Virus record (IMG/VR): IMGVR_UViG_3300008448_000023
Coordinates: 1-64,000 of that record
DNA length: 64,000 nucleotides
Direction: 5' to 3' (one strand)
Origin: a virus
Shown here one piece after another: positions 44,935 through 64,000 of this stretch (position 1 is its first letter; each line of letters starts with the position of its first letter). A program made the translations under genes and the position numbers. The notes beneath the pieces were generated by a model, which saw nothing but the letters and a program-made list of their open reading frames with translations, searched no databases and was not told where the DNA came from.

Positions 44935-45243
44935 ATGGATACTGATGCCCTTGTTGCTCACGCACGAGCAAGATTTAATCATGCTGTTGCAAAACGGCTA
45001 CTAAAAGAAAAATACCTGGCCAAAATGACCTTTGCTTATCGCGGTGGCATGTGGCGTGCTGGTCCTGAACTGCTGGCTGTGTTACAAACTGTGCCAGTAG
45101 AAGATGAAGTGGTTATTGTTGACTTATACGAAAACCCTGTTAAAATTGATCCACTAGAACTACAGCACTTGGCATTTGACCGTTGGCAAGAACAAATGAA
45201 TGCCTGGCACGTGGAGTTTGAAGAAATGAGCAAACGTCGATGA
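44935..45243 (+). CDS. Hypothetical protein
   Basis: 102-aa ORF, ATGA-coupled to the next gene. Confidence 0.6.
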   Translation: MDTDALVAHARARFNHAVAKRLLKEKYLAKMTFAYRGGMWRAGPELLAVLQTVPVEDEVVIVDLYENPVKIDPLELQHLAFDRWQEQMNAWHVEFEEMSKRR

Positions 45244-46043
45244 CCACCGGCGCACTGATATTTGCATTTAACAATGAACAAACCGACTACCTTGCTATGG
45301 CTCGATGGAATGCTGCAAACATTCGTAGGCACCTTAACATTCCAGTGGCCGTGGTCACAGACCAAACAGGATCTGATATTGTGGAAGGATTTGATCACGT
45401 CATTCATGCAGACCCCAAAGCGGGAGGAACCCGTTATTTCCAGGATTATGATGCCACTGTTACGTGGCATAACGCAGGCCGAGTTGATGCTTATAGTTTG
45501 TCCCCTTGGGACTGCACACTAGTATTAGATGCTGATTATGTTGTGGCCAGTGCTGCACTGCGCAATGTAATCAACGCTGATCGTGACTTTATGTGCTATC
45601 GCTGGGCCACAGACATGACCACTGGACGGGAGTTAGAAGCTCTCAACACATTTGGGCGCCATCAAATGCCCATGCGTTGGGCCACAGTAATGATGTTCCG
45701 TAGATCAAACACAGCACAATATATATTTGACTGTATGCAAATGATTCAAGACAACTGGCAACACTATCGCGATTTGTATGCCATAGACAAAAGCACATAT
45801 CGCAACGACTTTGCATTGAGTATTGCTCTGGGCATTGTAAGTGGACACACCAACCATGTAAGTGATATTCCATGGCCCATGATGAGCGTCATGCCTGAAC
45901 ATACTTTAAAGCAAGTGGACGCTGACAGTTACGAGATTACATTTGTAGATGCTGATCGAAAACCTCAAACAGTAGGCTGGATTGGTTTTGATTTCCATGC
46001 CATGGGCAAACGTCATTTGGAGAATATCGTTGCGTCCTGTTGA
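45240..46043 (+). CDS. GT-A fold glycosyltransferase-like protein
   Basis: VAVVTD, LSPWDCTLVLDADY (DxD), RNDFALS, C-terminal HAMGK. Confidence 0.65.
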   Translation: MTTGALIFAFNNEQTDYLAMARWNAANIRRHLNIPVAVVTDQTGSDIVEGFDHVIHADPKAGGTRYFQDYDATVTWHNAGRVDAYSLSPWDCTLVLDADYVVASAALRNVINADRDFMCYRWATDMTTGRELEALNTFGRHQMPMRWATVMMFRRSNTAQYIFDCMQMIQDNWQHYRDLYAIDKSTYRNDFALSIALGIVSGHTNHVSDIPWPMMSVMPEHTLKQVDADSYEITFVDADRKPQTVGWIGFDFHAMGKRHLENIVASC

Positions 46044-46794
46044 AGAACAAGGTTACATTATTCCTGCGTTCAATGTAGACAAGATAGACTACGTTGATTG
46101 TGCTCGTACCTTGGCAAAAACTTTACTGGCACAACATCCCAGGGCACGTATCTGTTTGCTGACCAACGAACCCTATGCAGCGGACTATAGTTTGTTTGCC
46201 TACACACACGTTGTAGACATCAATCGAGAAAATCCCTATGCCAACGACCCTTTGGTATTTGCTCAAACACCCTTCCGCGAAACTATCAAGCTAGAAGCAG
46301 ACATGCTGATTGCCAGTCCAATAGATCACTGGTGGACCATGTTTAGGCATCGTGATGTGGTGTTGTCCACTGGCTGCCGTAACTGGCGCGACGAAATCAG
46401 CACAGCTCGAGACTACCGAACAGTTTTTGATCAAAACAATTTGCCAGACGTGTACAATGCTATTACCTATTGGCGTCGCAGTGAAATGGCCAAAGAGTTC
46501 TTTGACACTGTGCGCAATATATTTGTTCATTGGACAGAATATCGTCGGCTCATCAAATACTCGCCCGATGTACCAGATACAGATTTGGTCTATGCCATGG
46601 CTGCACAGGTTATAGGGCCTGAATTGGTTACTATTCCAGGATCGCCCTCAATTGTACACATGAAACAAGCACATGCAGGCACAGCCACAAAAGACTGGAC
46701 ACAAGAATTGGTTTGGGAAATGAATCCATTGAGAATCAATACCGTTGCTCAATGGGGTGCGTTCCACTATAATGTTAAAAGGTGGCAACCATGA
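46030..46794 (+). CDS. GT-A fold glycosyltransferase-like protein (paralogue of the upstream gene)
   Basis: ICLLTN, TPFRETIKLEADM, PDVYNAITYW, TDLVYA, VHMK, FHY. Likely TTG start at 46030. Confidence 0.6.
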   Translation: MRPVEEQGYIIPAFNVDKIDYVDCARTLAKTLLAQHPRARICLLTNEPYAADYSLFAYTHVVDINRENPYANDPLVFAQTPFRETIKLEADMLIASPIDHWWTMFRHRDVVLSTGCRNWRDEISTARDYRTVFDQNNLPDVYNAITYWRRSEMAKEFFDTVRNIFVHWTEYRRLIKYSPDVPDTDLVYAMAAQVIGPELVTIPGSPSIVHMKQAHAGTATKDWTQELVWEMNPLRINTVAQWGAFHYNVKRWQP

Positions 46795-47117
46795 TGACCC
46801 CAGATGAATTCTTTGGTGTATTAGAAAGTATGCCACAACCTCAGTCTGTATTTTATAGACTGTATTATGAAGGTGAACGCCCACTATTCTACAGCATGGA
46901 AGACTTGCCCGGTACATACATTGAAGTTACCCCTGAACAGTATGCTAGGAGCCAAATGAAAGTGCGTATTCGCAACGGAAGGATAATTCCTATCACTTGG
47001 CAAACGGCACAAAAACTCGCACCCAGCAACGCAGGCACACTGTGCCATTTGCAAGATGTTGCTATTGTTGTAAAAGAAAACGGAACCTATTGGAGCAAAC
47101 GGACTTATGAAAGTTGA
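46791..47117 (+). CDS. Hypothetical protein
   Basis: ORF overlapping both neighbours; ATGA coupling at 46791. Confidence 0.55.
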   Translation: MMTPDEFFGVLESMPQPQSVFYRLYYEGERPLFYSMEDLPGTYIEVTPEQYARSQMKVRIRNGRIIPITWQTAQKLAPSNAGTLCHLQDVAIVVKENGTYWSKRTYES

Positions 47118-48027
47118 TATCGCAGATTTAGACTGCATTTACTTAACCTATGACGAACCACAAAAAGAAGAGTTTTGGATCAAAATTCGCAACATGGTGC
47201 CTTGGGCAAAACGGGTGGATGGCGTTAAGGGCAGCGATGCTGCTCACAAAGCGGCGGCGCAGGCCAGTGACAGTGATAGATTCATTCTCATTGATGGCGA
47301 CAATCTCCCCAACCCGTCGTTTTTTAATCAGACGCTTGTTCTTCCTAATGAAGAATACAAGAACGCTGTGTTCCGGTGGCGGGCACGTAATCACATTAAC
47401 GGTTTGATGTACGGCAACGGAGGCCTAAGTTCATGGACAAAGGAGTTTGTGATGAACATGCAAACTCATGAAGCCACAGACGGACGAGATGAAACTCAGG
47501 TAGAGTTTTGTTTTGATCCCTTGTATTGGCCCATGCATGATTGTTATTCAACAACTTACCCCAACGGTGATGATTTCCATGCGTGGCGTGCAGGATTTCG
47601 AGAAGGCGTTAAGATGTGCCTGCAACGCGGTCGCAAACCCACGGTAGAAGAATTTAAAAATCAAGTGCTACGAAACTTAGACAATCTCACAATCTGGCAC
47701 AACGTGGGCACAGATGTAGAATATGGCGAGTGGGCCATCGCTGGCGCACGTCAAGGCACCTATATGACCATGCTTACTAATTGGGATCATACCTTGGTGC
47801 AAAGTTTTGATGCCTTGGCCGAACTATGGCTCACAGTGAAAGATGGCCAACCAAGATTGCTCAGTAATCGGTTGGCCGAGGACTTGCACACACAATTGGA
47901 TCTGCCAATGGCCATCCTAGAATGTGAACAAAGCGCATTTTTTAAACATCACTATCGTTTGAACTGGCACAATCAAGGTGTTATGGTTCGAGAAATTGAC
48001 GTTATTCGCAAGATAGAAGGTTGGTAA
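47107..48027 (+). CDS. Glycosyltransferase-like protein (GT-A)
   Basis: YLTYDEP, RVDGVKGSDAAHKAAA, FILIDGDN (DxD), NGLMYGNGG, AWRAGFREGVKM. Confidence 0.6.
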   Translation: MKVDIADLDCIYLTYDEPQKEEFWIKIRNMVPWAKRVDGVKGSDAAHKAAAQASDSDRFILIDGDNLPNPSFFNQTLVLPNEEYKNAVFRWRARNHINGLMYGNGGLSSWTKEFVMNMQTHEATDGRDETQVEFCFDPLYWPMHDCYSTTYPNGDDFHAWRAGFREGVKMCLQRGRKPTVEEFKNQVLRNLDNLTIWHNVGTDVEYGEWAIAGARQGTYMTMLTNWDHTLVQSFDALAELWLTVKDGQPRLLSNRLAEDLHTQLDLPMAILECEQSAFFKHHYRLNWHNQGVMVREIDVIRKIEGW

Positions 48028-49412
48028 TGAGCAAAGGCGACCAAAGCCGATTCATGAGCAGTGCGGAACAAATGTCGCAGGACCTAGGTCCTGCGCTGTG
48101 TTTGGCTAAATGGAAGCAGGTCAGCTTTCACTTGCCCACAGGTCTAAACAACTCATGTTACCATCCGCCCCTGCACCAAATTACCGCAGACGATTTGACA
48201 CGCCCTGGTGGCCTGCACAATACAGCACACAAGAAATCTCAACGAGTAATGATGATACAAGGCGAAAAGCCTGGTGAGTGTCAGTATTGCTGGAACATGG
48301 AGAATCTAGGCAAACTCAGTGACAGACATTATCGTTCAGGAGAGCCGTGGGCCGCTGTGGATTTTGAACGCATTCGTAATTCAACAGGAACTGAAGATGA
48401 TGTCATTCCAAGCTACGTGGAAGTCAATTTTAATAATGCTTGCAATCTTCGTTGTAGTTATTGCAGCCCTCAGTTTAGCAGCAGTTGGATGGACGAAACT
48501 ACTAGACACGGAGCATACCCAACTAGTAAACCTCATAATGATCCTGCACACTTTGTGGGTTCGCGACGCCCCATACCGGCTAGGGAAGCTAATCCCTACG
48601 TTGATGCGTTTTGGGCGTGGTGGCCCACTCTCTATCCCAAACTAGAACACTTTCGCATGACCGGCGGCGAGCCGCTGATGGACAAAAATACCTATCGAGT
48701 GTTTGACTATGTGTTGGAGCATGACAATCCCAAACTGCATTTGAATGTAACTTCAAACTTTTCAGTAGAGGATGCGCTGTTTGAAAAATACATGGACTAT
48801 GCCAAGAGATTATGTACACCACGGATTGAACATTTCATGCAGTATGTTAGCCTAGACTCGGGCATTGCTACGCAAGCAGAATACCTGCGTCACGGCCTAG
48901 ACTATGCTCGCATGAGTCGCAATGTTGAACGATTCTTACAGGAAATACCAAGTCGCAACAGCCTGACGTTTATTATTACAATGAACAATCTCAGTGTCAC
49001 AGGACTGCGGCCCATGCTGGAATGGATACTGAATCTACGCCGGACACACAGTTCAACCTATCAACGTGTATGGTTTGATACACCTGTGCTGCGCGAACCT
49101 GCTTGGCAAAGTCTACAAATACTGCCAGAAAGTTATGTACGTCAACTAGAACAGGCTAGAGATTACATGCTGGCCAACTTGACCACAGAAGCCAATCCCC
49201 TACACGGATTCAAAGACTACGAAGTGCAACGCCTGGAGCGTGACATTGCCTGGATGCGTGAAGGACAGTTACAGTACAATAGTATAGCCAAAGCAGACTT
49301 CTATCGTTTCTTTGCAGAACACGATCGTCGAAGGGGCACAGACTTTTTGAAGTCTTTTCCTGAGATGCGAGCCTGGTGGGCAGAATGTGAGTATCATGCT
49401 AGGAATACATAA
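48027..49412 (+). CDS. Radical SAM enzyme with N-terminal Twitch/SPASM-like Cys cluster
   Basis: CNLRCSYC, TGGEP; N-terminal CLAKW...SCYH...CQYCW. Confidence 0.9.
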   Translation: MSKGDQSRFMSSAEQMSQDLGPALCLAKWKQVSFHLPTGLNNSCYHPPLHQITADDLTRPGGLHNTAHKKSQRVMMIQGEKPGECQYCWNMENLGKLSDRHYRSGEPWAAVDFERIRNSTGTEDDVIPSYVEVNFNNACNLRCSYCSPQFSSSWMDETTRHGAYPTSKPHNDPAHFVGSRRPIPAREANPYVDAFWAWWPTLYPKLEHFRMTGGEPLMDKNTYRVFDYVLEHDNPKLHLNVTSNFSVEDALFEKYMDYAKRLCTPRIEHFMQYVSLDSGIATQAEYLRHGLDYARMSRNVERFLQEIPSRNSLTFIITMNNLSVTGLRPMLEWILNLRRTHSSTYQRVWFDTPVLREPAWQSLQILPESYVRQLEQARDYMLANLTTEANPLHGFKDYEVQRLERDIAWMREGQLQYNSIAKADFYRFFAEHDRRRGTDFLKSFPEMRAWWAECEYHARNT

Positions 49413-50502
49413 AATTTTTGTTGACGAATGGGCCGAAACCTGGGACTTGCTAAAGCCCTATGCTGATGAGGTGTTTTGGCAATGGCCTAAAGAATTGGAT
49501 CCTTCTAGTGTGTACATTGTAGGTCGTGTGCTGCTGAAGCAACACTGGACAGAAATCACAGAATGGGCTACTCAGCATCCCGGACGCATTGTGTTTTCAA
49601 ATCCTGCTGAAGGATCTGAAACTATACTACTGCAACTCCGACGACTGCGTATTACAGAGCATGTGCGTGACGGACGTATTGGCCTACTAACCTCCGGTGA
49701 CATGGAACCCGGCTGGCGTTATTGCAAAACAGATTGCTACTTCTCTAACATAGTAGAGTTCACAGAAAATCGAGCAGCACAGATTGAAGCTGCACTGGAC
49801 CACAAAGTTCAGCGCCCTTATGAATTTTTGTTCTTAAATGGTAGACTGAGACCGCATCGCAAGTACCTAATAGACCATCTAAGAGCTCAAGAGTTATTGT
49901 CAAATGCACTGTGGACCAATCTTGGTAGTCAAGTTGAAATGGCTTTTACGTCTGCGTTGGACACAGGCAAAACAGAACCCATTAGATTGTTGCCCCCAGA
50001 ATACGAGATCCCACGTGCTGTGTCGCAGTTGAATACAGTACCTGAGTCGGGGTTTGTCAAACACGAGTTGTTCAACAACACCTGGGGTGATGCCATAGTC
50101 AATCATCGGTGCTACACAGACGCCTGGTTCAGTTTGGTAACAGAAACAATATTTGATTATCCGCACACGTTTCGCACAGAAAAGATCTACAAGCCTATTC
50201 TAATGGCACATCCATTTGTGGTTGCAGCCAATCCAGGCTATTTGCGAGATTTAAGAAACGCTGGATTCAAAACATTCGACACCTTGATAGATGAATCGTA
50301 TGATCAAATCAATACCCCAACTGCACGAATAGAGCGTATAATAGATACAGTGCGTGACATAAGTTTGAATGGTGCTGCTAATTTCTGGGAAGCCAGTCGT
50401 GATATCTGTAAATACAATCAGCAACATCTTGTGGAATACAATCGTCAGCAACGTGCTGAGTTGCCCACACTACTAGAACAATACCTCAATGAACGATCTT
50501 GA
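49387..50502 (+). CDS. Putative glycosyltransferase-like protein (GT-B-like C-terminus)
   Basis: FLFLNGRLRPHR, FSLVTET, TEKIYKPILMAHPF, LRNAGFKTF...IDESYD. True start may be a few codons downstream. Confidence 0.5.
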   Translation: MSIMLGIHKIFVDEWAETWDLLKPYADEVFWQWPKELDPSSVYIVGRVLLKQHWTEITEWATQHPGRIVFSNPAEGSETILLQLRRLRITEHVRDGRIGLLTSGDMEPGWRYCKTDCYFSNIVEFTENRAAQIEAALDHKVQRPYEFLFLNGRLRPHRKYLIDHLRAQELLSNALWTNLGSQVEMAFTSALDTGKTEPIRLLPPEYEIPRAVSQLNTVPESGFVKHELFNNTWGDAIVNHRCYTDAWFSLVTETIFDYPHTFRTEKIYKPILMAHPFVVAANPGYLRDLRNAGFKTFDTLIDESYDQINTPTARIERIIDTVRDISLNGAANFWEASRDICKYNQQHLVEYNRQQRAELPTLLEQYLNERS

Positions 50503-51817
50503 TTTTCGCCAGCAAGTACTGGATACCTTGAGTCCTAGCTTTTGTGGGGCAAAGTGGTTTAATGCTACCATTTGGCTTGGTAGCGGCATGAGCACCAGCT
50601 GCCATCACCCGCCAGCTCATTTGGTGGACATTGATAAAGTCACTACCAACCCTAAGCTGCTGCACAATACACCCGAAAAGAAAGACGACCGTGCAAAAAT
50701 GCAGGCAGGCGAACGTCCCAGTGGTTGCGAATACTGCTGGAAGATTGAAGACATGGGTCGCAATGCTGTTTCAGACCGTGTGTACAAATCAAAAATTTAC
50801 CCTATAGCTGCATTAAAGGAAGCACATGAAACTCCGCCTGATCAAGACGTGGATTTGCGAACTCTTGAAATTTCTTTTGATCGGACCTGCCAGTTTGCTT
50901 GTTCTTATTGTAATCCTGCATTCAGTAGCACATGGGTTAAAGACATTAGGAATAACGGACCCTATATGGGCCTTGTGTCTGACGGTCGTAATCACTTTAC
51001 ACATGAGCATTCAAGTGCTCAATTGTATCGCTTCGGGGAGACCAATCCGTATGTTGAAGCTTTTTTTGCGTGGTGGGAATCAGATCTACATCACACATTA
51101 CAAGAATTAAGAATCACCGGCGGTGAGCCACTAATGAGCGGCCACACCTGGAAACTGATTGACTGGTTCCGTAACAATCCAGGACGCAGTCGCACACGCC
51201 TGGCCATCAACTCAAACCTGGGTGCAGATGTAGATGTGGATCGACTGCTGGATTCCATACAGGGGCTGGATGTGGACGTCTATACCAGCCAGGAAGCTGT
51301 GGGCGTTCAAGCCGAATACATACGTGATGGCCTGGACTATGTTGCCTGGAAGGCAAATGTAGAAAAGATCTTGGCCAGTGGCCGTGTGCGTACCTTGCAC
51401 TTTATGGGCACTATTAACGCACTGTGCCTGCCCAGCTTGCCCGACCATTTGCGTTATCTACTGGAACTAAAACAACGCTACGGGCGTGACGCAGTAAGTT
51501 ACACACTGAACATTTTGAGATTCCCCAGCTTTCAAAGTGCGCTGGTAATGCCACATGAACTACGTGCTAGATTTTCTGTAGAACTAAAAGAATTGCACTA
51601 CCGCAATCAACACAATCCGCTGTTTCATGAGCATGAATTGGATCACTTGCAACGGCTGATTGATTACTTGGATGTAGTCGAAACTCCGCATTCAGAAGCA
51701 TTTGACCTCCCTAAACTACTGAACGATTTTGTTGAATTTTATCGACAGTACGATATTCGCAGAGCAAAGAACTTTGCACTGACGTTCCCTAAATTAAAGA
51801 AACTCATAAACAAATGA
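50489..51817 (+). CDS. Radical SAM enzyme with N-terminal Twitch/SPASM-like Cys cluster
   Basis: CQFACSYC, TGGEP; CGAKW...SCHH...CEYCW. Confidence 0.9.
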   Translation: MNDLDFRQQVLDTLSPSFCGAKWFNATIWLGSGMSTSCHHPPAHLVDIDKVTTNPKLLHNTPEKKDDRAKMQAGERPSGCEYCWKIEDMGRNAVSDRVYKSKIYPIAALKEAHETPPDQDVDLRTLEISFDRTCQFACSYCNPAFSSTWVKDIRNNGPYMGLVSDGRNHFTHEHSSAQLYRFGETNPYVEAFFAWWESDLHHTLQELRITGGEPLMSGHTWKLIDWFRNNPGRSRTRLAINSNLGADVDVDRLLDSIQGLDVDVYTSQEAVGVQAEYIRDGLDYVAWKANVEKILASGRVRTLHFMGTINALCLPSLPDHLRYLLELKQRYGRDAVSYTLNILRFPSFQSALVMPHELRARFSVELKELHYRNQHNPLFHEHELDHLQRLIDYLDVVETPHSEAFDLPKLLNDFVEFYRQYDIRRAKNFALTFPKLKKLINK

Positions 51818-53502
51818 CCCTAGAAGAATTACAAACACAATACAACGTAGTTGGCATAATTGATTTGTCTGCATGGACTAACAACTACGAAACCAGCACA
51901 CAGTGGCTACGCAGTCAATGCCAAGCTGTGTACCAACCAGCCTACGCAGAAAATCAACGCATTGTGTTTGTACATTCACATGATTACTATGTTAAGAATG
52001 CAGACTCTGCGGGTATCATTTTAAAGAACATACAAGTAGCACTGAATGAAACTGATATTAGCAATTATTTTGCGCTAGTACTCAGTACCAATCCCAATAT
52101 TGAACAAGAAATGGCTTATATCAATTCGCAGAGTTCTGACCCAGTGCCTGTGAAATTTGAACGCTGTGTTGGCGAGTTTGTTACAAAAGAATTGACCCAG
52201 CATCCTTACAGTCGTAAAGAGCAGTATCAGTACGGATCGGCTAACCCTATAAAAATCAGCCTAAATGAAGTCAGCGAGCAAGATAAATTTTTACTCAGTG
52301 AAAGCAAGAACTTCTGCATTTACCCTTGGATTCACCTGCACGCTTGGCCCACGGGCGAAGCATATCCTTGCTGTCATGCCACACAGCATCCTGTGTATGG
52401 TAACACACGTAAAGAAACCTTGTCTGATGTATGGAATGGCACACGCATGCGACAACTAAGACAAGACATGCTGAGTGATACACCAAATGAAACCTGCCGT
52501 AAATGTCACGAACAAGAAGATTCTGGATTCTTTAGTGGCAGACAAAGTGCAAACAAACATCACGGACACCATATTGATCGTGTGCATAGAACAGGACCTG
52601 ATGGCACATTCAATGAGTTTGAAATGACTTATTGGGATATTCGTTTTAGTAATCTTTGCAATTTAAAATGTCGTAGCTGTGGACATATCTTTAGCTCACA
52701 GTGGTATCAAGATCAAGCCAAGTTAGCTGGAGGTACCTGGAAACAATCTAATCCTGTGCTTAACTATGCAGGACGTACAGAAACAGACATGTGGGAACAA
52801 TTGATTCCACATCTGGACTATGTGGAACAGATTTATTTTGCCGGTGGCGAACCCTTGCTGATGGAAGAACACTATCATATTCTCGACGAGTTAGTAAAAA
52901 GAAAAAGATTTGATGTAAGATTGATTTACAACACCAATTTTACACACACTGACTTGAAAGGTAATTCGGTATTTGACTACTGGAAACAATTTGATTCGGT
53001 GGCTGTAGGCGCCAGCTTAGATGCTTCAGGAGCACGTGGAGAATACATACGCAAAGGCACAGACTGGGCACAAGTAGAACAAAATCGCAGAGACATGTTG
53101 GCAATTTGTCCTGGCGTGGATTTTTATATTTCGCCCACACTCAGTATCATGAATGCGCTACACCTGCCAGATTTTCATCGTGACTGGGTAGAAAAAGGCC
53201 TGCTAAAACCGCAAGATCTAAATGTGAATATTCTTCAGGACCCCTACGAATACAGACTGGACATTGCTACTCCTGAATACAAACAACAAATACAACAGCG
53301 ATTTCTTGAACACATTGAATGGTTGCGACCACAAGACCCCTTGCATAGAGCCACAGTGGGTTTTGAATCGGCAATCAACTACATGATGAGCACAGACAAC
53401 ACCGCACTGATACCTAAATTTTGGGACAAGACTCAACAGCTGGATAAAATCAGAAAAGAAAACATCTTGGACATTATTCCTGAATTAGCTGCATTAAAAT
53501 GA
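51814..53502 (+). CDS. Radical SAM enzyme with Twitch/SPASM domain and an extra N-terminal domain
   Basis: CNLKCRSC, AGGEP; CIYPW...PCC...CRKC. Confidence 0.9.
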   Translation: MTLEELQTQYNVVGIIDLSAWTNNYETSTQWLRSQCQAVYQPAYAENQRIVFVHSHDYYVKNADSAGIILKNIQVALNETDISNYFALVLSTNPNIEQEMAYINSQSSDPVPVKFERCVGEFVTKELTQHPYSRKEQYQYGSANPIKISLNEVSEQDKFLLSESKNFCIYPWIHLHAWPTGEAYPCCHATQHPVYGNTRKETLSDVWNGTRMRQLRQDMLSDTPNETCRKCHEQEDSGFFSGRQSANKHHGHHIDRVHRTGPDGTFNEFEMTYWDIRFSNLCNLKCRSCGHIFSSQWYQDQAKLAGGTWKQSNPVLNYAGRTETDMWEQLIPHLDYVEQIYFAGGEPLLMEEHYHILDELVKRKRFDVRLIYNTNFTHTDLKGNSVFDYWKQFDSVAVGASLDASGARGEYIRKGTDWAQVEQNRRDMLAICPGVDFYISPTLSIMNALHLPDFHRDWVEKGLLKPQDLNVNILQDPYEYRLDIATPEYKQQIQQRFLEHIEWLRPQDPLHRATVGFESAINYMMSTDNTALIPKFWDKTQQLDKIRKENILDIIPELAALK

Positions 53503-54137
53503 GTTTGAATTTTGATAGTTTTTTTGGCGCACCTACTTCCTATGTGCCGGGACCGTATTTTTTAGCAGCAGGTTGCAGTCATACTTCAGCGGTGGGGGTA
53601 GATGCTGATCAATGCTGGGCAGGCCAACTGGCTCAACGCACTCGAATCAAGACTTGTAATCTAGCCGAAGCCGGGGGCAATGCCTGGATTGCCAGTATGC
53701 GTATAGCACAGTGGATTCTGGTCACCGGTCGTCCAGAGTTTGTTGTGGTACAATGGCCTCACCCCATACGCACAGTGATATGGAAAAACGGACAAGGTAA
53801 TTCTGTTAACGTACACGACACTGAAGATCATTTATTTCACACCCGCTTGCGCTACGGTGACTCCAATTACTGGGCTGAGTGGATGCAGGCAATAATTACT
53901 ACAAATGCCATTTGCGTCGCAGCCAAAATCCCCATTATAAATTGGAGTCTTGACAACGTTGATCCGCACTATCTTGCACTGTTAAAGGCCAATGGCATTG
54001 TTGTGCATGATCAAACAGATCAACCACGCTGGGAAAGAGACCGGTCGGGCTCAGATCAACGACATGCCGGGCCCTTGTCACATGCGCAATGGGCACAACA
54101 ATTACAGGAAATGTTAAATGCAATTACCACACGATAA
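53499..54137 (+). CDS. SGNH/GDSL-like hydrolase or acyltransferase
   Basis: AGCSHT (block I), NLAEAGGN (block II), C-terminal DQRHAG (DxxH). Confidence 0.65.
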   Translation: MSLNFDSFFGAPTSYVPGPYFLAAGCSHTSAVGVDADQCWAGQLAQRTRIKTCNLAEAGGNAWIASMRIAQWILVTGRPEFVVVQWPHPIRTVIWKNGQGNSVNVHDTEDHLFHTRLRYGDSNYWAEWMQAIITTNAICVAAKIPIINWSLDNVDPHYLALLKANGIVVHDQTDQPRWERDRSGSDQRHAGPLSHAQWAQQLQEMLNAITTR

Positions 54138-56641: not shown

Positions 56642-57662
56642 AATAGATCTCCGTGGCAACAGCGGAGACTGTCTAACTGTTTATATCAATGTGCACGACA
56701 ACAGTTTGAGTCGTAAATGGTTGGCCGCGCTCAATGATATTATTCGTAATCAACTGCATCTAGAAAAGAACTATTGTTGGATGGGCTGGACTGAGCATGA
56801 TCGCAACTTAGAATATCTTTGTACACAAGTCAATCGCAGTATTCATGCAATCAACAGCAGCAATTTAGATTATCGTATACAAGACTTTTTTAGTCCTGCC
56901 AATGTAATACAAAAAAATCTTGATGTCAATCATGACAAAATGAATCATCTGCATCGTTATTTCGAAGACCTGCAAGGAACTTCGGGTGCAATGAGCAGGT
57001 ACTACACAGCCGCAGACGATCACACACGTTGGCACATACGCCAATTAAATTTATTGTGTCATGAAATAGAAAGTCTTGTGCTGAGCATGCGCAAAGATGT
57101 GCAAGCACCTGAATGGAAGCGTCCCAGCCAGTTGATGTGCTGGCTCAATGCCCCACGTTTTGTGCTAGAACAAGAAGATTATGAGTTGTTTGGTGTTGAC
57201 ACCATTAACCGTAGTCTTGGTGGTGTGTATGTGGGCGTGAACAAAGCAGTAGGCAAGCACCATTGGGAAGTGTTCAACGACGAAGGCCGCGACAGTCGCA
57301 TCGGCGAACTTGTTACGTCCTCACTAAAAGCACAGACTGAAGCCGCAGGAGATTTTGATATTGAGTGGGCACGTGACCCTGGCGCTTACCATTGGCAAAA
57401 GACCAAATTGGCTGAATTCCGTGAATGGCTTATCGCGAACGGATTTGATCCTGACGACAAAGCCCTCACTATCGGCCATCCCAAGGTTGCTCAAGTTGAT
57501 TTGCAGCGCTCATTCGGCACAACAGACTACACAGAGATATGGGCACAGCTAGCCCAACATCTGGATGTGTATAAAATACGCACCAGTTCAGCAGAAGCTA
57601 CATATAACTATAACTGGAGCGATGCAGACTATGCAGAGCAACAAATAAAGGAACTTAAATGA
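56628..57662 (+). CDS. Hypothetical protein
   Basis: 344-aa ORF coupled to its neighbours. His-containing motifs NHLHRYFE and LNLLCHEIES suggest metal binding. Confidence 0.6.
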   Translation: MESIEIDLRGNSGDCLTVYINVHDNSLSRKWLAALNDIIRNQLHLEKNYCWMGWTEHDRNLEYLCTQVNRSIHAINSSNLDYRIQDFFSPANVIQKNLDVNHDKMNHLHRYFEDLQGTSGAMSRYYTAADDHTRWHIRQLNLLCHEIESLVLSMRKDVQAPEWKRPSQLMCWLNAPRFVLEQEDYELFGVDTINRSLGGVYVGVNKAVGKHHWEVFNDEGRDSRIGELVTSSLKAQTEAAGDFDIEWARDPGAYHWQKTKLAEFREWLIANGFDPDDKALTIGHPKVAQVDLQRSFGTTDYTEIWAQLAQHLDVYKIRTSSAEATYNYNWSDADYAEQQIKELK

Positions 57663-57760
57663 ACTGGATTAAAAGCATCTGGAATCGAATTACCTTGGAA
57701 ATTCGCTATCGTAAAAAGCTAAAAGAACTACGCAAGCGCGATCCATTTATCTACAAATGA
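57659..57760 (+). CDS. 33-aa basic peptide ending RDPFIYK
   Basis: MNWIKSIWNRITLEIRYRKKLKELRKRDPFIYK; ATGA overlaps at both ends. Confidence 0.65.
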   Translation: MNWIKSIWNRITLEIRYRKKLKELRKRDPFIYK

Positions 57761-58401
57761 AAAAGCAGTTGTTAACAGTAGGGGATAGTTTTACCTATGG
57801 TGATGAACTTGACGATATCTATCAGGCTTGGCCTTATCAGTTGGCAGATCTACTAGATTACGAAGTGCATAACATGGGCCTAAGCGGTGCCAGCAATGCT
57901 AGTATATTGCGTAGATCACTAGAAGAACTAGTAACCAACGAGTACGATCTAGTAATCATTGGATGGACTAACCCGGGACGTATCGAGTGGAAAGACGACA
58001 CTGGTATTCCCTATAACATGTGGCCAGGACATGCAGGGTCGTCGGCGTTCTTTGTTGAACAACCATGGCGGTTGGATCTGCTGAGCTACATTAGTCAACA
58101 TCATAATTCATCATACCTGTATCAGCGATATCTAATTCAAGTTCTTTCTTTACAATCTTATTTTGAAGCACATAACATTGAGTATAGAATGATAGATACT
58201 GTACGCAACAACTACTATCGAAAAGTTGGCGCCGAAGAACATGATAAATTAGAAGCAAAAATAAACACTAAAAAGTTTGTAGGCTGGAACAGTTTTGGAA
58301 TGTCTGAGCTAACTATGGATTGTCCACGCGGTGTAGGTAGTCACCCACTGGAAAAAGGCCATAAAAAAATAGCCAATGAAATATATCAAGGATTAAAATG
58401 A
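57757..58401 (+). CDS. SGNH/GDSL hydrolase family protein
   Basis: GDSFTYG, NMGLSGASN, HPLEKGH. Confidence 0.8.
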   Translation: MKKQLLTVGDSFTYGDELDDIYQAWPYQLADLLDYEVHNMGLSGASNASILRRSLEELVTNEYDLVIIGWTNPGRIEWKDDTGIPYNMWPGHAGSSAFFVEQPWRLDLLSYISQHHNSSYLYQRYLIQVLSLQSYFEAHNIEYRMIDTVRNNYYRKVGAEEHDKLEAKINTKKFVGWNSFGMSELTMDCPRGVGSHPLEKGHKKIANEIYQGLK

Positions 58402-59879
58402 ATATTCTAGGGATATCCGGCGGCTTTCACGATGCTGCTGCCACAGTAATTGATAGTTCAGGCAACATCTTGTTTGCTGGCCATGCAGAACGCTATAGTA
58501 AATGCAAGAGCGATGCTGACATTGGCTCTGCACTGTTAGACGAACTAGAGCAATACAATCCCATTGGTACTGTAGCATACTATGAACGACCGCTAGTAAA
58601 GCAACTGCGTCAATGGTACGCAGGACAGGGCATAGAGTGGGATAAACTAACTGCTCGACAAGCTGTGAACAAACAAACACAAGGGAGGTACGATCATGTG
58701 CCCATACAGTCTTTCAATCATCATCTTAGCCATGCTGCTGCGGGGTTTCAAACGAGCACGTTCCAAAGAGCCACAGTTGTGGTAATAGATGCTGTGGGTG
58801 AATTTGAAACAATCACAATATGGGGAGCACAATATGATCGAAGTGGTGTGGCAAAGTATAAAAGACTTTGGAGCCAGCGTTATCCACATTCAATTGGACT
58901 GTTCTACAGCGCAGCTACTGGCAGCGTTGGCCTACGCCCACTAGATGAAGAATACATCTTGATGGGCATGGCTGCTTACGGCAGCTCAGAACATAATCTA
59001 ACACTGCAAAAAAAGCTAGTCAGTGATACTGTGAATATTAAATTCCGTGAAAATCTACACACAGGCATAGACAGTAAACACCTAGCTGACATGACAGACT
59101 ATGACATTGCTGCCAGCGCACAGGCCATTGCAGAAAATTTGATCAACAATGTCATGAGCAGAGCACGTGATTTTAAGTGGTCTGACAATCTGGTATACAT
59201 GGGTGGCGTTGCTCTCAATTGTTCAGCCAACAGGCATATAGGACGGTATTTTGATAACATATGGATTATGCCTTGCCCTGGCGATGCTGGCAGTAGCCTG
59301 GGTGCTGCTGCCCTGGCTTGGGGTAAAAGAGTTAAATGGACTGATGCTTATCTCGGACACAATATCGCTGGTGACTATCCTGTTAATGATATTCTCAATC
59401 ATCTGGCATCTGATCTCATTGTTGGTGTTGCTAGCGGCCGTGCTGAGTTTGGTCCTCGTGCACTAGGAAATCGTAGCTTGCTGGCCGATCCACGAGGCGA
59501 GCGTATCAAGGACCAAGTAAATGCAATCAAACGTAGACAAAAATTTAGACCTTTTGCCCCTGTTATTTTGGAGGAACATGTTGATATGTACTTTGATATG
59601 CCTAGGGGTTTCCCTGACAGTAGGTATATGCAAGTCATCGCTCGTTGCCGGCATCCTCACATATTTCCTGCTATCATTCATCATGACCACACTAGTCGTG
59701 TACAAACTGTGCCGCGAGATGGAAGCGGAATTAGACAACTACTCGAAAAGTGGTACACAATGACTGGGTGTCCCATGTTGCTGAACACATCGTTGAACAT
59801 TCGCGGCGAACCCATGGTCAACGATCGCAAGGACGCAGACAGATTTGAAACATTGTATGGCGTCAAAGTATGCAGTTGA
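58398..59879 (+). CDS. O-carbamoyltransferase (NodU/CmcH/TobZ family)
   Basis: ILGISGGFHDAAA, HHLSHAAAG, DAVGE, MGMAAYG, GGVALNC, GDAGSSLG, EFGPRALGNRSLL, FRPFAP, SRVQTV, LLNTSLNIRGEPMV. Confidence 0.95.
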   Translation: MNILGISGGFHDAAATVIDSSGNILFAGHAERYSKCKSDADIGSALLDELEQYNPIGTVAYYERPLVKQLRQWYAGQGIEWDKLTARQAVNKQTQGRYDHVPIQSFNHHLSHAAAGFQTSTFQRATVVVIDAVGEFETITIWGAQYDRSGVAKYKRLWSQRYPHSIGLFYSAATGSVGLRPLDEEYILMGMAAYGSSEHNLTLQKKLVSDTVNIKFRENLHTGIDSKHLADMTDYDIAASAQAIAENLINNVMSRARDFKWSDNLVYMGGVALNCSANRHIGRYFDNIWIMPCPGDAGSSLGAAALAWGKRVKWTDAYLGHNIAGDYPVNDILNHLASDLIVGVASGRAEFGPRALGNRSLLADPRGERIKDQVNAIKRRQKFRPFAPVILEEHVDMYFDMPRGFPDSRYMQVIARCRHPHIFPAIIHHDHTSRVQTVPRDGSGIRQLLEKWYTMTGCPMLLNTSLNIRGEPMVNDRKDADRFETLYGVKVCS

Positions 59880-60562
59880 GCGGAAATTTGTTGATACTGG
59901 GAGATAGCTTTTGTCAACATCCTGAATACTGGCCTGAGTATTTTGCTGGTCATATACTGGGACCAACCAGTCAACATCGTTGCCTAGGGTACGGCGGCGC
60001 CAGCTGGTGGTTTTTGCGCGACAAATTATTGCAGTTCATATCTTGTGAATCAAAGTTTTGGAACAACACAGAGCTGCTGGTTATGATACATCCTCCGCGA
60101 TCACGAATTCATACTACATTAGACGAAGTTAGATTTAAAACTTTTGATCCTCCTTTGCCACGTGTTTTCAACAATGTTGATTTTGAAGAGTTAGACATAG
60201 CAGTCAAGCTTTATTACAAGTATTTTCATTCAGAAGAATATTGCCGTTGGGCAGAAACTCAATGGTTCAAAGAATTATCCACACTGTGCAAAAATAAACA
60301 AGTTATCAATCTGTTTGTAGACATAGATGTGCCTAGATCATCTGACCACTTGCCAGGAATAACAATAGATCAGTCATTGATTGGAATTCAATTCAATCAA
60401 TACATGCGTACACAAGATATTGAACCATTTGATGGTATCATTGGATTTCAAAATCATTTCACGGCAAACAACAACAAAATCTTTGCCAAACAACTATATG
60501 AAATTGCTCAAGGTACAACCAAAAAATTTAACCCAACAGAATTTGAAAAGTATGAGCAATAG
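59870..60562 (+). CDS. SGNH-like protein
   Basis: LILGDSFC, GYGGASW, C-terminal QNHFT. Confidence 0.6.
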   Translation: MQLSGNLLILGDSFCQHPEYWPEYFAGHILGPTSQHRCLGYGGASWWFLRDKLLQFISCESKFWNNTELLVMIHPPRSRIHTTLDEVRFKTFDPPLPRVFNNVDFEELDIAVKLYYKYFHSEEYCRWAETQWFKELSTLCKNKQVINLFVDIDVPRSSDHLPGITIDQSLIGIQFNQYMRTQDIEPFDGIIGFQNHFTANNNKIFAKQLYEIAQGTTKKFNPTEFEKYEQ

Positions 60563-61817
60563 AGTATTCCCGATTAAAAGCGACACGGCCTGTTTGTTGA
60601 AGTGGGCCTGGTCAACAGTATATCTAGGTCAGGGCACAAGCTCAAGTTGTCACCGCACAGATCAGGCACTTATTCCCCCAGACAACTTTGCAAGCTTTCA
60701 CAACTTGCCCAACAAAGTGGCAGCACGAAAGCAAATGCAGGAAGGCACTTGGCCACAAGGCGGATGTCAGTACTGTGAAAAGATTGAGCAAGCAGGCGGC
60801 ATGAGCGATCGACAATACCAACTCAAGGCTGGTCACGAAGCTGATCGCACTCCTGAAGAGTTGTTGACAGACCCCACTGCCACAGAAGTTGTGCCCACTA
60901 TCTTGGAAGTCTACTTCAACAACACCTGCAACATGGCCTGCTTGTATTGCGGTAGTCACTTCAGTACCAAATGGGAAGAAGAAAACAAGAGATTTGGCGT
61001 ATTTGAACAAGGGCGTGTACGGTTTGGATACAATCAACCCTCCAATCCCAACTATGACAAAATGTTGGCAGACTTCTGGCAGTATCTCAGAGACAAAGAT
61101 CGCTACAAGCACATACGCTACTATCAGATCCTAGGCGGAGAACCATTCTTTCAGCCAGAGTTTGACACCAGCTTAGACTTCTGGGAAAGTCATCCCAACC
61201 CGGAACTCACATTCAACATCATTACCAACTTGAAAGTGCCCACAAAGAAGTTCAAAGCATACATAGATCGCTTTGGGGCAATGGTTGAGTCTGGTGCATT
61301 AAAACGTCTACAAATAACTGGCAGCTTGGATGCCTGGGGTCCACAAGAAGAATATGTGCGCTGGGGACTTGACCTTGAGGAGTGGCAAGAGAACTGGGAA
61401 TACTTGCTGGACAAAGACTGGGTTGTGATGTGCATGAACACAGCTATCAGTGCGCTGACAATTAAAACACTGCCTGACTTAGTGGAACGTATCAATGGTT
61501 GGAATGCTCGCCGCAATCCCTGGAATCCCATCAGCTTCAGCTTTATGTCAGTAATGACACCGCCTGAAATGGTTCCGGATATCTTTGGTGCTGGAGTGTT
61601 TGATGCAGACTTTGAACGTGTGTTGGCAGCCATGCCTACAGACAAACCTGGATCCCAAGAAGCACGAGAACACATGACTGGCATTATGCGACAGATACAA
61701 GCAGGCCCCAGAGATCAAAGCCGCATTGATGATCTCAAAGTTTATCTAACTGAGATTGATCGCCGCCGCGGAACCAATTGGAAACAGTTATTTCCGTGGC
61801 TTGCAGAGCTCAACTAA
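60552..61817 (+). CDS. Radical SAM enzyme with N-terminal Twitch/SPASM-like Cys cluster
   Basis: CNMACLYC, LGGEP; CLLKW...SCHR...CQYC. Start placed at ATG 60552. Confidence 0.9.
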   Translation: MSNRVFPIKSDTACLLKWAWSTVYLGQGTSSSCHRTDQALIPPDNFASFHNLPNKVAARKQMQEGTWPQGGCQYCEKIEQAGGMSDRQYQLKAGHEADRTPEELLTDPTATEVVPTILEVYFNNTCNMACLYCGSHFSTKWEEENKRFGVFEQGRVRFGYNQPSNPNYDKMLADFWQYLRDKDRYKHIRYYQILGGEPFFQPEFDTSLDFWESHPNPELTFNIITNLKVPTKKFKAYIDRFGAMVESGALKRLQITGSLDAWGPQEEYVRWGLDLEEWQENWEYLLDKDWVVMCMNTAISALTIKTLPDLVERINGWNARRNPWNPISFSFMSVMTPPEMVPDIFGAGVFDADFERVLAAMPTDKPGSQEAREHMTGIMRQIQAGPRDQSRIDDLKVYLTEIDRRRGTNWKQLFPWLAELN

Positions 61818-62816
61818 ACTGGCGTTAAACTGAATTTGATCTGCGTAGGTATCATGTGCCGTACGCAGATTTTCTATTGCAGCCAGGTGTTCAGAGTGTG
61901 CAGGATTGACAACATCTTGGACAGCAAAGTCAGCCCATGTGCCCCAATCTTCGAGTCTGTTGACTACCCCGTCAAACCCAAAGTTAACACATAGCTCGCA
62001 GAAGTTTTGCACGTCATGATGGTTGGCTTGTTGAAACACGAACTTCAACAGCACTTCCGACTTGGTACGTTGTTGTACCAGCTTCAGCCACTCTAAGTTG
62101 CGCATTAGTACATCCCAGCGTCCGGGTCTGCGTACATTGTGATACACTTCTGCAGAACCTGCGTCCATACTGATAAAGTATTGCGTAATGTTGTCTAGTA
62201 TAGGTGAGTCGCTTAATTGCTTTTCCATCAGCAAACCATTGGTAAACAATCGTATAGTTTGTTGTGGAGTCGGCTGGAACTCACGGATCAGCGGACGCAT
62301 GATAGAACTTGCTAGTGGATCGCCATTGCCCGACATAACAATATGACAAGGTTCTTCAAATTGTTCTAACAGTCTTCGTGTGTGTTCTACTTGTGCTAGC
62401 TTGCGCTCATAGTCTGCGCCTTGTGAAACCATGATAGCATCACTGCGGCAACTAGGGCAAGCTAGATTGCAACTTTCGTCTATGTTGATGCTGACAACAT
62501 AGCCAGTATCAAATAAGTCTCGGTTTCTAACACCGCAACGGTCTACGGCACAGTGCGTGAACTTGCCATCTACAATGTCTTGTTGTAAGGCTTGTGCTGT
62601 GGGATGTGCCCATACATCCGCTAGGCGATCAAAGTCAGTGATCCGGCCAGGACTAACAGGCAACCATGCTTCGCAGCCGCATACAAAACAATCTCCTTTC
62701 CAATCTACTACCAATTGACGACTAGGTGCATTGCAGCGGTAGTCTATGGTGTAGCCTAGTTGCGCATTGCGCGGGATTGAGTTATATGCATGCTGGTTAG
62801 CAATCGGGATGATCAT
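61788..62816 (-). CDS. Radical SAM enzyme
   Basis: CNLACPSC, SGNGDP; N-terminal C...GDCFVCGC...C...C cluster. Confidence 0.88.
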   Translation of the reverse strand: MIIPIANQHAYNSIPRNAQLGYTIDYRCNAPSRQLVVDWKGDCFVCGCEAWLPVSPGRITDFDRLADVWAHPTAQALQQDIVDGKFTHCAVDRCGVRNRDLFDTGYVVSINIDESCNLACPSCRSDAIMVSQGADYERKLAQVEHTRRLLEQFEEPCHIVMSGNGDPLASSIMRPLIREFQPTPQQTIRLFTNGLLMEKQLSDSPILDNITQYFISMDAGSAEVYHNVRRPGRWDVLMRNLEWLKLVQQRTKSEVLLKFVFQQANHHDVQNFCELCVNFGFDGVVNRLEDWGTWADFAVQDVVNPAHSEHLAAIENLRTAHDTYADQIQFNASLVELCKPRK

Positions 62817-63832
62817 AGATATGACTCTAGACCACCGCGACGACGTAGGTCCTGGGTACAGCAGCTGATGCCGCCGTCCCAGAAGTAGCTGTGACGCAAC
62901 TCACTTATAATCGGATTGATCCGATGCTTCTTACAATAATCAAACACCTGCTTGTTATAAGCAGAGAAGATTACATTCTCTTCGTCAAGCACAAGACAGT
63001 TAACATCAAAAACTGTCTCAGCTACAAACCCTGTCCATTTATTTAGATACTTGTCCACAAAGTCTGTAAACTCTGCTGTGGGAGTTTGTCCTTGTACATA
63101 CCAAGCACCAGGGCTTTGTTCGTACTTGAACTTGCCAACTTCCATGGCGGCCCAGATACTTGGATCCCAGATCTTGCACACATCCCAGCCAGGGAAATCA
63201 CGTGCTAGATCCAAGTTAACATCGTGCTTGGAACTTAACAGCACACCAGGTTTGAGAATAGCAAACACAGCATCGCCATGTCCGTCGGTGATGGCCTCAT
63301 GGATTTGATATTCTGGTCCTAACACGTTATCCACTATCCAACGGGTTTGTTCGGGCTTTAGGAAGTCTGAGTTGTCAAAGAATACATCGCGGCCCACACG
63401 CACGATACAGCTGGCACTTGCACCATTTAGAATGCAGTCTTCATCCCACTCGCTCTTGTGTGGGTTAACAACTTGATCCTTGTATTCAGCACAAATAGTG
63501 TCTAGCTCTTTCATGTTTAGTACACGCAACAGTTTGTCGCCTAGTGTGATTTGCCAATCTCTTGGAGTCAGTGGCGGTAGCGGAGCACCCCCACCTTCGG
63601 TTTGAAACCAAACAAACTCGTCCTTGGGACGCACGTCAGGTCTGCGCACTCGGGCACCATATTGCTCGATGGTCTTTTGTAGGTTGTTGAGATCCTCTTC
63701 TGTTTCATGCAGGATCTGTTGCATTTGATTACGAACTTGAGGATTGTCGATGAAGTCAAAGTAATCTGCTGGGTAGGCACGGCCCACAATAACTTCTTCT
63801 AAAGGTTGCCAAGATGTGTAACTGTTGATCAT
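62813..63832 (-). CDS. Amidinotransferase (glycine/inosamine-phosphate amidinotransferase family)
   Basis: NSYTSWQPLEEVIVG, PRD, GHGD, FDVN, C-terminal DGGISCCTQDLRR with catalytic Cys. Start placed at ATG 63832. Confidence 0.85.
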   Translation of the reverse strand: MINSYTSWQPLEEVIVGRAYPADYFDFIDNPQVRNQMQQILHETEEDLNNLQKTIEQYGARVRRPDVRPKDEFVWFQTEGGGAPLPPLTPRDWQITLGDKLLRVLNMKELDTICAEYKDQVVNPHKSEWDEDCILNGASASCIVRVGRDVFFDNSDFLKPEQTRWIVDNVLGPEYQIHEAITDGHGDAVFAILKPGVLLSSKHDVNLDLARDFPGWDVCKIWDPSIWAAMEVGKFKYEQSPGAWYVQGQTPTAEFTDFVDKYLNKWTGFVAETVFDVNCLVLDEENVIFSAYNKQVFDYCKKHRINPIISELRHSYFWDGGISCCTQDLRRRGGLESYL

Positions 63833-64000
63833 ATGTTTAATTGTGCGAATAAAGTATTTAGGCGTTGAGTCTTGCTGGCGGCAAATAAACGCTGGTTGTG
63901 TACAATGTCGTCCCAGCAGCCGGTATACCAAGCTTGCATGTCTTGACTTTGTAGTTGTTGCAAGCTGGATTTGATAGCTTGCCACCTTTGGGTGTTGTTG
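63829..64000 (-). CDS. Partial CDS (C-terminus) entering from the right edge
   Basis: Open frame ...NNTQRWQAIKSSLQQLQSQDMQAWYTGCWDDIVHNQRLFAASKTQRLNTLFAQLNI* with ATGA overlap into the amidinotransferase. Resembles the C-terminus of the 49387-50502 protein. Confidence 0.55.
   Translation of the reverse strand, partial: NNTQRWQAIKSSLQQLQSQDMQAWYTGCWDDIVHNQRLFAASKTQRLNTLFAQLNI

Follow-up and report, generated by a model that had tools for sequence, protein, structure and literature searches.

A conserved phage gene block with twitch radical SAM paralogues, glycosyltransferase-like proteins and a carbamoyltransferase accompanied by a DPFIYK micro-protein

Introduction

What would a large phage make with seven radical S-adenosylmethionine (SAM) enzymes, six glycosyltransferase (GT)-like proteins, a carbamoyltransferase and an amidinotransferase, all encoded in one block behind its fibre genes? 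The question is raised by the IMG/VR-type virus contig IMGVR_UViG_3300008448_000023 (94.4 kb). The window analysed here is its first 64 kb (64,000 nucleotides), and positions beyond it are given as contig positions. The block (hereafter the island) starts at 44935, spans ~26.5 kb with some 26 genes and ends at contig position 71471 (Table 1). A reading of the window made from its letters (the sequence-only reading) had proposed that the phage builds a heavily modified glycan. The enzyme inventory fits this proposal, with a branch formed by a DegT aminotransferase and a short-chain dehydrogenase/reductase (SDR), six GT-like proteins, SGNH proteins, and the carbamoyl- and amidinotransferase, and a heavily decorated sugar chain is the likeliest product of the block. 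In the reading that we prefer, with somewhat less than even confidence, a soluble cytoplasmic cassette builds this heavily tailored glycan on a phage-made acceptor, likeliest a virion or fibre protein.

Results

Conservation and linkage of the island

In IMG/VR, a scan based on one of the radical SAMs gives 154 confirmed contigs and one based on the carbamoyltransferase at least 597. At least 150 IMG/VR contigs (35-374 kb) of Rak2/Atu_ph07-like jumbo phages keep the gene order of the island, with ~70% identity of the proteins. Among 160 loci compared, the core genes occur in the same order with median identities of 68-84%, and insertions are found at a few fixed points. In the 30 of these loci for which the upstream flank is available, the block lies directly 3' of a Ser/Thr/Ala-rich protein of 321 amino acids (aa), which in the window (43914-44879) immediately precedes the terminator-like hairpin. 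Contigs that carry the block are binned with very different hosts, and its conservation across them is strong. Linkage of the genes in relatives had been set beforehand as a test of the sequence-only reading: in more than 100 related contigs the block is linked and syntenic, and its genes are not scattered.

In the isolated-phage collection searched, the picture is sparse. Megablast of the island gave no match there, and mini-versions were found instead of the full block. One island radical SAM is related to more than 7500 protein-database clusters; distant relatives of that enzyme occur in only four of 50,697 isolated-phage records (Vibrio phages K566 and K567, Ralstonia phage RsoM2USA and a marine single-cell virus). 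The mini-module of RsoM2USA, annotated as hypothetical, consists of an SGNH gene, a radical SAM (49% identity), an unassigned open reading frame (ORF), a second SGNH gene and a carbamoyltransferase (43%).

The radical SAM array

The CxxxCxxC motif is present in seven ORFs of the window, the number given by the sequence-only reading, and the Pfam Radical_SAM matches are weak. Six of the seven match end to end the NCBIfam model NF033640 (N_Twi_rSAM, twitch domain-containing radical SAM), with 229-406 bits for a curated cut-off of 170 bits. The seventh (61788-62816) scores 27-32 bits against the same model; it is not a member and represents a different radical SAM. An eighth radical SAM of the contig, the seventh NF033640 member (205 bits), is encoded 18 kb from the island at 89673-90848 (L002:11673-12848) and has a median identity of just 25% to anything in related loci.

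In BtrN-type radical SAMs the twitch region is C-terminal, whereas in those of the island it is N-terminal. With Pfam, a SPASM-like match precedes the Radical_SAM domain in four ORFs (residues 168-232 in radical SAM 3, before the SAM domain). The NF033640 paralogues share a Cx17-18C(C)x41-52CxxC region, ~45-50 residues before CxxxCxxC, and a GGEP motif. The possibility that they are frameshifted genes with a C-terminal SPASM domain was rejected, since the N-terminal cysteine region belongs to the curated full-length model and is kept in every paralogue. The paralogues are 18-32% identical to one another, and five of them show medians of 69-73% to their own orthologues in other phages. They are therefore old and individually constrained, each with its own role. 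The N-terminal twitch region is common to the catalogued family; the array of old paralogues is what this island adds.

The carbamoyltransferase and its micro-protein neighbour

The NodU/TobZ carbamoyltransferase is intact, as had been read, and both of its Pfam domains, PF02543 and PF16861, are matched above the Pfam cut-offs (116.5 and 161.8 bits). Across 20 orthologues, HHxxH, D131, D296 and GPRALGNRS do not vary; we take these to be the equivalents of the metal and nucleotide residues of TobZ. The score against the NodU equivalog NF041651 is 135.7 bits for a cut-off of 1000, and the protein is therefore a family member, not NodU itself.

A gene of 33 codons at 57659-57760 lies between 56628-57662 and the SGNH gene that precedes the carbamoyltransferase. 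Its product, MNWIKSIWNRITLEIRYRKKLKELRKRDPFIYK, ends in DPFIYK; its ATG overlaps the preceding stop codon, and its own TGA overlaps the following ATG. The micro-protein is present in 141 of the 160 loci, in 90 distinct DNA versions. Leu21 is written with six codons and Pro29 with four while both residues are fixed, hence selection acts on the micro-protein sequence. The N-terminus is variable and the C-terminal core invariant; the last six residues do not change even where the carbamoyltransferase is just 43-45% identical. Among 1.84 billion representative proteins, its profile finds 382 clusters, nearly all of them 30-75 aa long and matched at their C-terminus. A degenerate DNA pattern for the micro-protein occurs in nine places in 185,579 species genomes, seven on contigs of metagenome-assembled genomes with cassette genes and two by chance. 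Pfam and NCBIfam gave no match to the micro-protein, and a literature search on DPFIY returned nothing.

To which enzyme does the micro-protein belong? When 120 IMG/VR loci are anchored on the micro-protein alone, the carbamoyltransferase follows directly 3', or after one SGNH gene, in 79 of 90 loci. Within 0.4 kb upstream of the micro-protein, 76 of 98 loci contain no island gene at all. In 37 loci of another phage lineage, L177:7395-10946 among them, a DnaG-type primase (E 2e-4) and a DnaB-like helicase (E 6e-29) flank the micro-protein and the carbamoyltransferase, and no sugar or radical-SAM genes are nearby. On these counts the micro-protein belongs to the carbamoyltransferase and not to the radical SAMs, and its role as a radical-SAM substrate was rejected. 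That it could be a split-off N-terminus of the carbamoyltransferase was also rejected, as it is unlike the strand pattern of the Pfam N-terminal domain. A predicted complex of the two proteins, run without controls, scored 0.00.

In the cultured phage RsoM2USA, genes 201 and 200 are separated by an unannotated small ORF ending in IRKQDPFIYK (L163:14027-14150), with an SGNH gene and the carbamoyltransferase downstream of it. In two database entries (P0142 and P0164) the stop of the micro-protein is read as Q and the product extended, in one of them into a second DPFIYK peptide. This suggests tandem peptide genes, perhaps on contigs called with a code that reads the stop as Gln.

A comparable arrangement exists in bacteria. 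DUF5989 (PF19451), present in 60 of 301 sampled bacterial genomes, is a protein of ~50 aa with an N-terminal L-x-x-L-W-x-F-M-x-x-R-K-K segment (a similar one occurs in the phage peptide) and PFIY near the C-terminus. It adjoins a carbamoyltransferase homologue in all 16 loci inspected. In the phage peptide, the membrane helix of DUF5989 is replaced by a basic helix. The PF19451 model gives no match on the contig at E up to 10, and hhalign of the micro-protein profile (A8) with DUF5989 (A11) is weak (probability 18% over 11 residues). From these comparisons, DUF5989 would be a functional analogue, and possibly a remote relative, of the micro-protein and not a family to which it belongs. No literature on DUF5989 was found.

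Amidinotransferase, SGNH proteins and nucleotide-sugar enzymes

The amidinotransferase (62813-63832) is of the AGAT/StrB1 type, in agreement with the sequence-only reading: with phmmer it matches AGAT, StrB1, HsvA and SxtG (E 1.3e-14 to 2.6e-11), and 'GGISCC' aligns with 'GGFHCW' at the catalytic Cys and 'GHGDAVF' with 'PHIDATF' at the His. No other gene of the block is as well conserved (median identity to relatives, 84%). The three SGNH-like proteins that had been proposed differ in standing. The one at 57757-58401 has family-model support, with DUF6071 at 36.1 bits (cut-off 27) and GDSL matches; those at 53499-54137 and 59870-60562 are called from the GCSH or GDS motif alone.

Past the window edge, the DegT protein matches PF01041 (1e-62) and the extended SDR, of the 4,6-dehydratase/epimerase type, PF01370 (4e-45). 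Together they would form a nucleotide-amino-sugar branch. The scores remain below the equivalog cut-offs (PseC, 153 for 423; RmlB, 131 for 365), and the particular sugar is therefore not assignable.

Glycosyltransferase-like genes, the repeat protein and the 344-aa protein

Three GT-A-like and one or two GT-B-like proteins had been counted in the window. A GT8-like pair, one further GT-A-like model and, over the whole island, three GT10-like paralogues are present. The joint profile (A9) of the GT8-like pair, which contains the DxD-like motifs LDADY and LEADM and has no Pfam match, finds glycogenin-1 (GT8) in the PDB with E 0.009 over profile positions 17-112, and NleB more weakly. In six of eight relatives (L044, L036, L063, L046, L049 and L062), a mini-ORF of 7-12 codons (MPWA-x-N-x-W-R-like) with an in-frame stop lies directly 5' of the second GT8-like gene; in the window, mini-ORF and gene form a single frame (45982-46794). 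Recoding of the in-frame stops in these orthologues was considered and rejected, as the stops divide the mini-ORF from the gene.

For 47107-48027, the AlphaFold2 (AF2) model is poor (predicted local distance difference test, pLDDT, of 47 with a shallow alignment), and its residues 1-140 match GT-A and nucleotidyltransferase folds with Z 5.3-7.0. The three genes 49387-50502, 63829-64980 and 64964-66055 are paralogues with an ET..TEK motif as in GT10 fucosyltransferases. Neither PF00852 nor any other Pfam model matches them at E 0.01, and membership of the family is not assigned; in the Atlas, the closest clusters that bear a name are GT10 at 0.80, which is no more than a lead.

The 1128-aa protein contains about ten tandem repeats of 65 residues around W-x-P-D-P-x-D-P-P-Y-I-Y-V-F-G-N-Q, and its orthologues vary between 793 and 2109 aa among relatives. 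Its C-terminal domain is GT-A-like and homologous to 47107-48027 (hhalign 96.8%), without the DxD of that paralogue. The repeat core P-Y-I-Y resembles the P-F-I-Y at the end of the micro-protein, and in relatives the gene often stands immediately 3' of the carbamoyltransferase. No match to the 1128-aa protein was found in the PDB or PHROGs, and profiles of four families without assignment had no match among PDB sequences.

The AF2 model of the 344-aa product of 56628-57662 is confident (pLDDT 89). Foldseek of this model against the PDB gave no match, and VIA-align gave some 30 cyclophilin-like barrels with Z 5-6.8, below the trusted level. The ESM Atlas (at most 0.80) is uninformative. In BFVD, its relatives are ten uncharacterised phage proteins, one from Atu_ph07.

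Layout of the island and genomic setting

The terminator and the run of coupled genes reported behind the fibre genes are both there, the former as a hairpin with a T-run (44883-44902). The latter consists of 18 plus-strand genes (44935-61817) with neighbours overlapping by 4-32 nt, on which four minus-strand genes converge from 66055; all island genes are tightly coupled translationally through overlaps. The island continues past the window edge, as anticipated, with two GT10-like genes, the 1128-aa repeat protein, DegT and SDR. In all 34 products, the maximal hydrophobicity of any 19-residue window is at most 1.6, which indicates no membrane segment.

Table 1. Features of the island and of its 5' border (window positions unless marked as contig positions)
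Feature	Position	Strand	Remarks
Intrinsic-terminator-like hairpin with T-run	44883..44902	+	closes the fibre genes
Promoter-like site TTTACT-17-TATACT	after the 44883..44902 hairpin		
102-aa conserved protein, first gene of the block	44935..45243	+	39 related loci, median 62% identity; no family match
GT-A-like (GT8-like), LDADY motif	45240..46043	+	joint profile with 45997-46794
GT8-like paralogue, LEADM motif	45997..46794	+	phrog_1903; start uncertain, TTG 45982 or ATG 45997
111-aa conserved protein	46782..47117	+	64 related loci; no family match
GT-A-like, IDGDN motif	47107..48027	+	kin of the 1128-aa repeat protein's C-terminal domain
N-terminal-twitch radical SAM 1	48021..49412	+	NF033640 303 bits; CNLRCSYC
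GT10-like paralogue 1, ET..TEK motif	49387..50502	+	hhalign to the 64964-66055 family E 7e-22; no Pfam match
N-terminal-twitch radical SAM 2	50489..51817	+	NF033640 279 bits; 49% identical orthologue in cultured Ralstonia phage RsoM2USA
N-terminal-twitch radical SAM 3	51814..53502	+	NF033640 406 bits; extra 160-aa N-terminal domain
SGNH-like, GCSH variant motif	53499..54137	+	motif only; no family match
N-terminal-twitch radical SAM 4	54118..55356	+	NF033640 348 bits; >7500 clusters of relatives in metagenomes
N-terminal-twitch radical SAM 5	55325..56641	+	NF033640 281 bits
344-aa phage-specific protein, possible cyclophilin-like barrel with helical insert	56628..57662	+	AF2 pLDDT 89
33-codon DPFIYK micro-protein gene	57659..57760	+	ATGA overlaps at both ends
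SGNH hydrolase/acyltransferase-like, GDSFTYG	57757..58401	+	DUF6071 36 bits (cut-off 27), GDSL matches
NodU/CmcH/TobZ-type carbamoyltransferase	58398..59879	+	PF16861 1.5e-47, PF02543 2.3e-33
SGNH-like, GDSFCQ	59870..60562	+	motif only
N-terminal-twitch radical SAM 6	60552..61817	+	NF033640 230 bits; likely start ATG 60552, ORF open from 60381
Seventh radical SAM, not NF033640	61788..62816	-	SPASM-like Cys region N-terminal to the SAM domain
Arginine-type amidinotransferase	62813..63832	-	likely start 63832, ORF open to 63985
GT10-like paralogue 2	contig 63829-64980	-	3' end in the window (63829..64000)
GT10-like paralogue 3	contig 64964-66055	-	past the window
1128-aa repeat protein	contig 66054-69440	+	past the window
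DegT aminotransferase	contig 69409-70542	-	past the window
SDR/4,6-dehydratase-like	contig 70494-71471	-	past the window

The left part of the contig (completeness 27% by CheckV) carries T4-type genes for an SbcCD-like nuclease, a gp55-type late sigma factor, and baseplate hub and wedge. The best matches of the wedge, at 35% identity, are in Sinorhizobium phage Phosso, Agrobacterium phage Atu_ph07, E. coli phage PBECO4 and other phages of 310-490 kb. Because the wedge is closest to these phages and their kin, the contig is, as judged by sequence, a fragment of an uncultured Rak2/Atu_ph07-like jumbo myovirus. Directly 3' of the wedge gene, a single ORF of 4872 aa (26745-41363) presumably encodes a giant fibre or decoration protein. 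At contig positions 76095-79290 (L001:16095-19290), a MoxR-type AAA ATPase occurs near a VWA/DUF2201 protein, and further along the contig are an Rpb6-like and a dual-specificity phosphatase-like protein. MoxR with VWA/DUF2201 forms a CobS/CobT-like pair that is typical of aquatic T4-like phages.

Discussion

A phage-made glycan and its possible acceptor

How could these enzymes work together? The 4,6-dehydratase-like SDR and DegT, by their families, would supply a nucleotide-linked sugar of the 4-amino-4,6-dideoxy type. Its assembly into an oligosaccharide could fall to the three GT-A-like and the three GT10-like transferases, perhaps aided by the GT-A-like repeat protein. On this chain, the amidinotransferase would make a guanidino group from an amine, the carbamoyltransferase with its DPFIYK partner of 33 aa would O-carbamoylate a hydroxyl, and the SGNH proteins would put on or take off acyl groups. 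The six N-terminal-twitch radical SAMs and the other one could perform C-H-activating edits on sugar carbons, with epimerisation, dehydration, oxidation and C-C bond formation as candidates. Glycosylation of the acceptor would take place in the host cytoplasm during infection. A virion or fibre protein is proposed as this acceptor because all products are without a membrane segment and the block sits behind the fibre genes. The resemblance of the GT8-like pair to glycogenin, a protein-tyrosine glucosyltransferase, may count in the same direction.

Several observations weigh against this reading. The T4-type late promoter motif TATAAATA has three matches for 1.6 expected, and none is at the island. 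Support for GT folds in the GT-like proteins is weak, with E 0.009 for the profile match, Z 6-7 for a poor model and 0.80 in the Atlas. A literature search found no paper on NF033640, and there is no reaction on record for any member of the family. Finally, since the carbamoyltransferase and its peptide occur elsewhere as a pair without sugar genes, that module need not act on a virion glycan.

A bolder form of the proposal goes further. The twitch-first radical SAMs would make serial radical edits on a protein-linked oligosaccharide, giving giant aquatic phages a cationic and chemically unprecedented sugar coat of fibre or capsid, and the DPFIYK micro-protein would be an obligatory activating subunit of the carbamoyltransferase. 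We consider this full version rather unlikely.

Other uses of the same inventory

The sugar, or another group, could instead be carried by a modified base of the phage DNA and evade host nucleases. T-even phages indeed put sugars on DNA via nucleotide sugars and GTs, all the enzymes of the island are soluble, a ThyX gene lies 600 bp past the end of the block, and in the 37 loci described above primase and helicase genes flank the carbamoyltransferase and its peptide. The sequence-only reading had taken the lack of DNA-modification markers as slightly favouring a non-DNA target. The 94 kb indeed showed no base hydroxymethylase, no DNA glycosylase-like transferase and no DpdA-type enzyme, but the argument is weak because the contig is only ~27% of the genome and markers could be elsewhere. 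The position and orientation of the block go with the fibre genes, and the carbamoyltransferase family and SGNH enzymes are known on hydroxyls of sugars and natural products; DNA hypermodification is quite improbable. The glycan could also be destined for the host: in the reading given for GT-rich regions beside pelagimyophage tail fibres (PMC7029224), the lipopolysaccharide (LPS) or capsule of the infected cell is altered, e.g., for superinfection exclusion. Families of the GT8-like and GT10-like kinds are often found in LPS synthesis. Yet no product spans a membrane, which leaves no flippase, polymerase, ligase or polyprenyl-phosphate transferase and speaks against a self-contained envelope pathway. 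Moreover, a late change of surface would be of little use to a lytic jumbo phage, and O-antigen genes are normally host-specific and variable, whereas the block is conserved across very different binned hosts; we hold this use to be improbable.

A free metabolite, i.e., a diffusible pseudo-oligosaccharide with guanidino and carbamoyl groups that acts on the host or competitors, would draw on tailoring of the aminoglycoside or saxitoxin kind. The amidinotransferase matches StrB1 and SxtG, and the carbamoyltransferase, of the TobZ/SxtI type, has a small partner ORF, much as the short uncharacterised ORFs sxtJ and sxtK adjoin the saxitoxin carbamoyltransferase sxtI (PMC2885083). A similar trio in Synechococcus phage S-SCSM2R was named 'antibiotic synthesis genes' by its authors (PMC12801897). 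The aminoglycoside analogy of the sequence-only reading holds for the classes of enzymes and not beyond: the likeness is at the family level (NodU equivalog, 136 bits for a cut-off of 1000), no cyclitol synthase or polyketide-like core enzyme is seen in the island, and the radical SAMs are permuted NF033640 proteins, not of the BtrN type. With neither transporter nor self-resistance gene found, and with six GT-like genes and the 1128-aa repeat protein pointing to a polymer or protein acceptor, a metabolite has a small chance of being the product. The DPFIYK peptide itself could be seen as the precursor of a ribosomally synthesised and post-translationally modified peptide (RiPP), cross-linked by the radical SAMs and then glycosylated or tailored. 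Its variable N-terminus and invariant C-terminal core, its place inside a radical-SAM array and the strong selection at the protein level would suit a precursor, and twitch/SPASM enzymes often mature peptides. The neighbourhoods (79 of 90 and 76 of 98 loci, above) tell otherwise. Precursor and maturase do not co-occur throughout, since the 37 loci contain primase, peptide, carbamoyltransferase and helicase only, and in bacteria, too, a small PFIY-ended protein is encoded beside the carbamoyltransferase (16 of 16 loci). A protease gene was not recognised either (RiPP recognition element domains were not looked for), and a RiPP-like pathway is very improbable.

Relation to known systems

The preferred reading, a glycan on a virion or fibre protein, has precedents in kind. 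Viruses are known to glycosylate their own virions, as in the capsid glycans of chloroviruses, the fibril sugars of mimivirus, and the O-glycans on capsid and tail of mycobacteriophages. In those systems, structural proteins are glycosylated in the cytoplasm by virus-encoded nucleotide-sugar enzymes and soluble GTs. To our knowledge, none of the three includes radical SAMs, amidino- or carbamoyl-transferases.

Closer in gene content are cassettes of large aquatic myoviruses. GT and radical-SAM genes adjoin tail-fibre genes in aquatic myophages, and GT8 is the commonest family in pelagimyophages (PMC7029224). S-SCSM2R carries genes for DegT, a radical SAM and an amidinotransferase, and a phage amidinotransferase is reported from a virion proteome (PMC12801897); that of S-SCSM2R is 29% identical to the one of the island. 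Like the island, these pelagi- and cyanomyophage cassettes, that of S-SCSM2R included, place sugar genes, radical SAMs and amidinotransferases by the host-recognition module. The island differs from them by its array of six to seven twitch-first radical SAMs, its carbamoyltransferase with micro-protein and its repeat protein. Furthermore, the pelagi- and cyanomyophage regions are described as hypervariable, whereas this block is fixed and syntenic in the Rak2/Atu_ph07-like lineage. Earlier work has noted sugar and radical-SAM cassettes beside fibre genes in aquatic myophages, and NF033640 is a catalogued family; in the literature searched, we found no paper on a fixed cassette, a paralogue array, the repeat protein or a micro-protein partner.

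The cassette is common: in IMG/VR, its large-phage contigs number in the hundreds, and the protein clusters from metagenomes in the thousands. One operon with six to seven old NF033640 paralogues is a natural entry to the substrates of these radical SAMs. NodU/TobZ-type carbamoyltransferases with a dedicated micro-protein occur in phages and in bacteria, which may explain the poor behaviour of some of these enzymes alone. If the product does decorate virions, it would be the most elaborate phage-made glycan known, and it would bear on host recognition and on the evasion of recognition by hosts and grazers in lakes and oceans.

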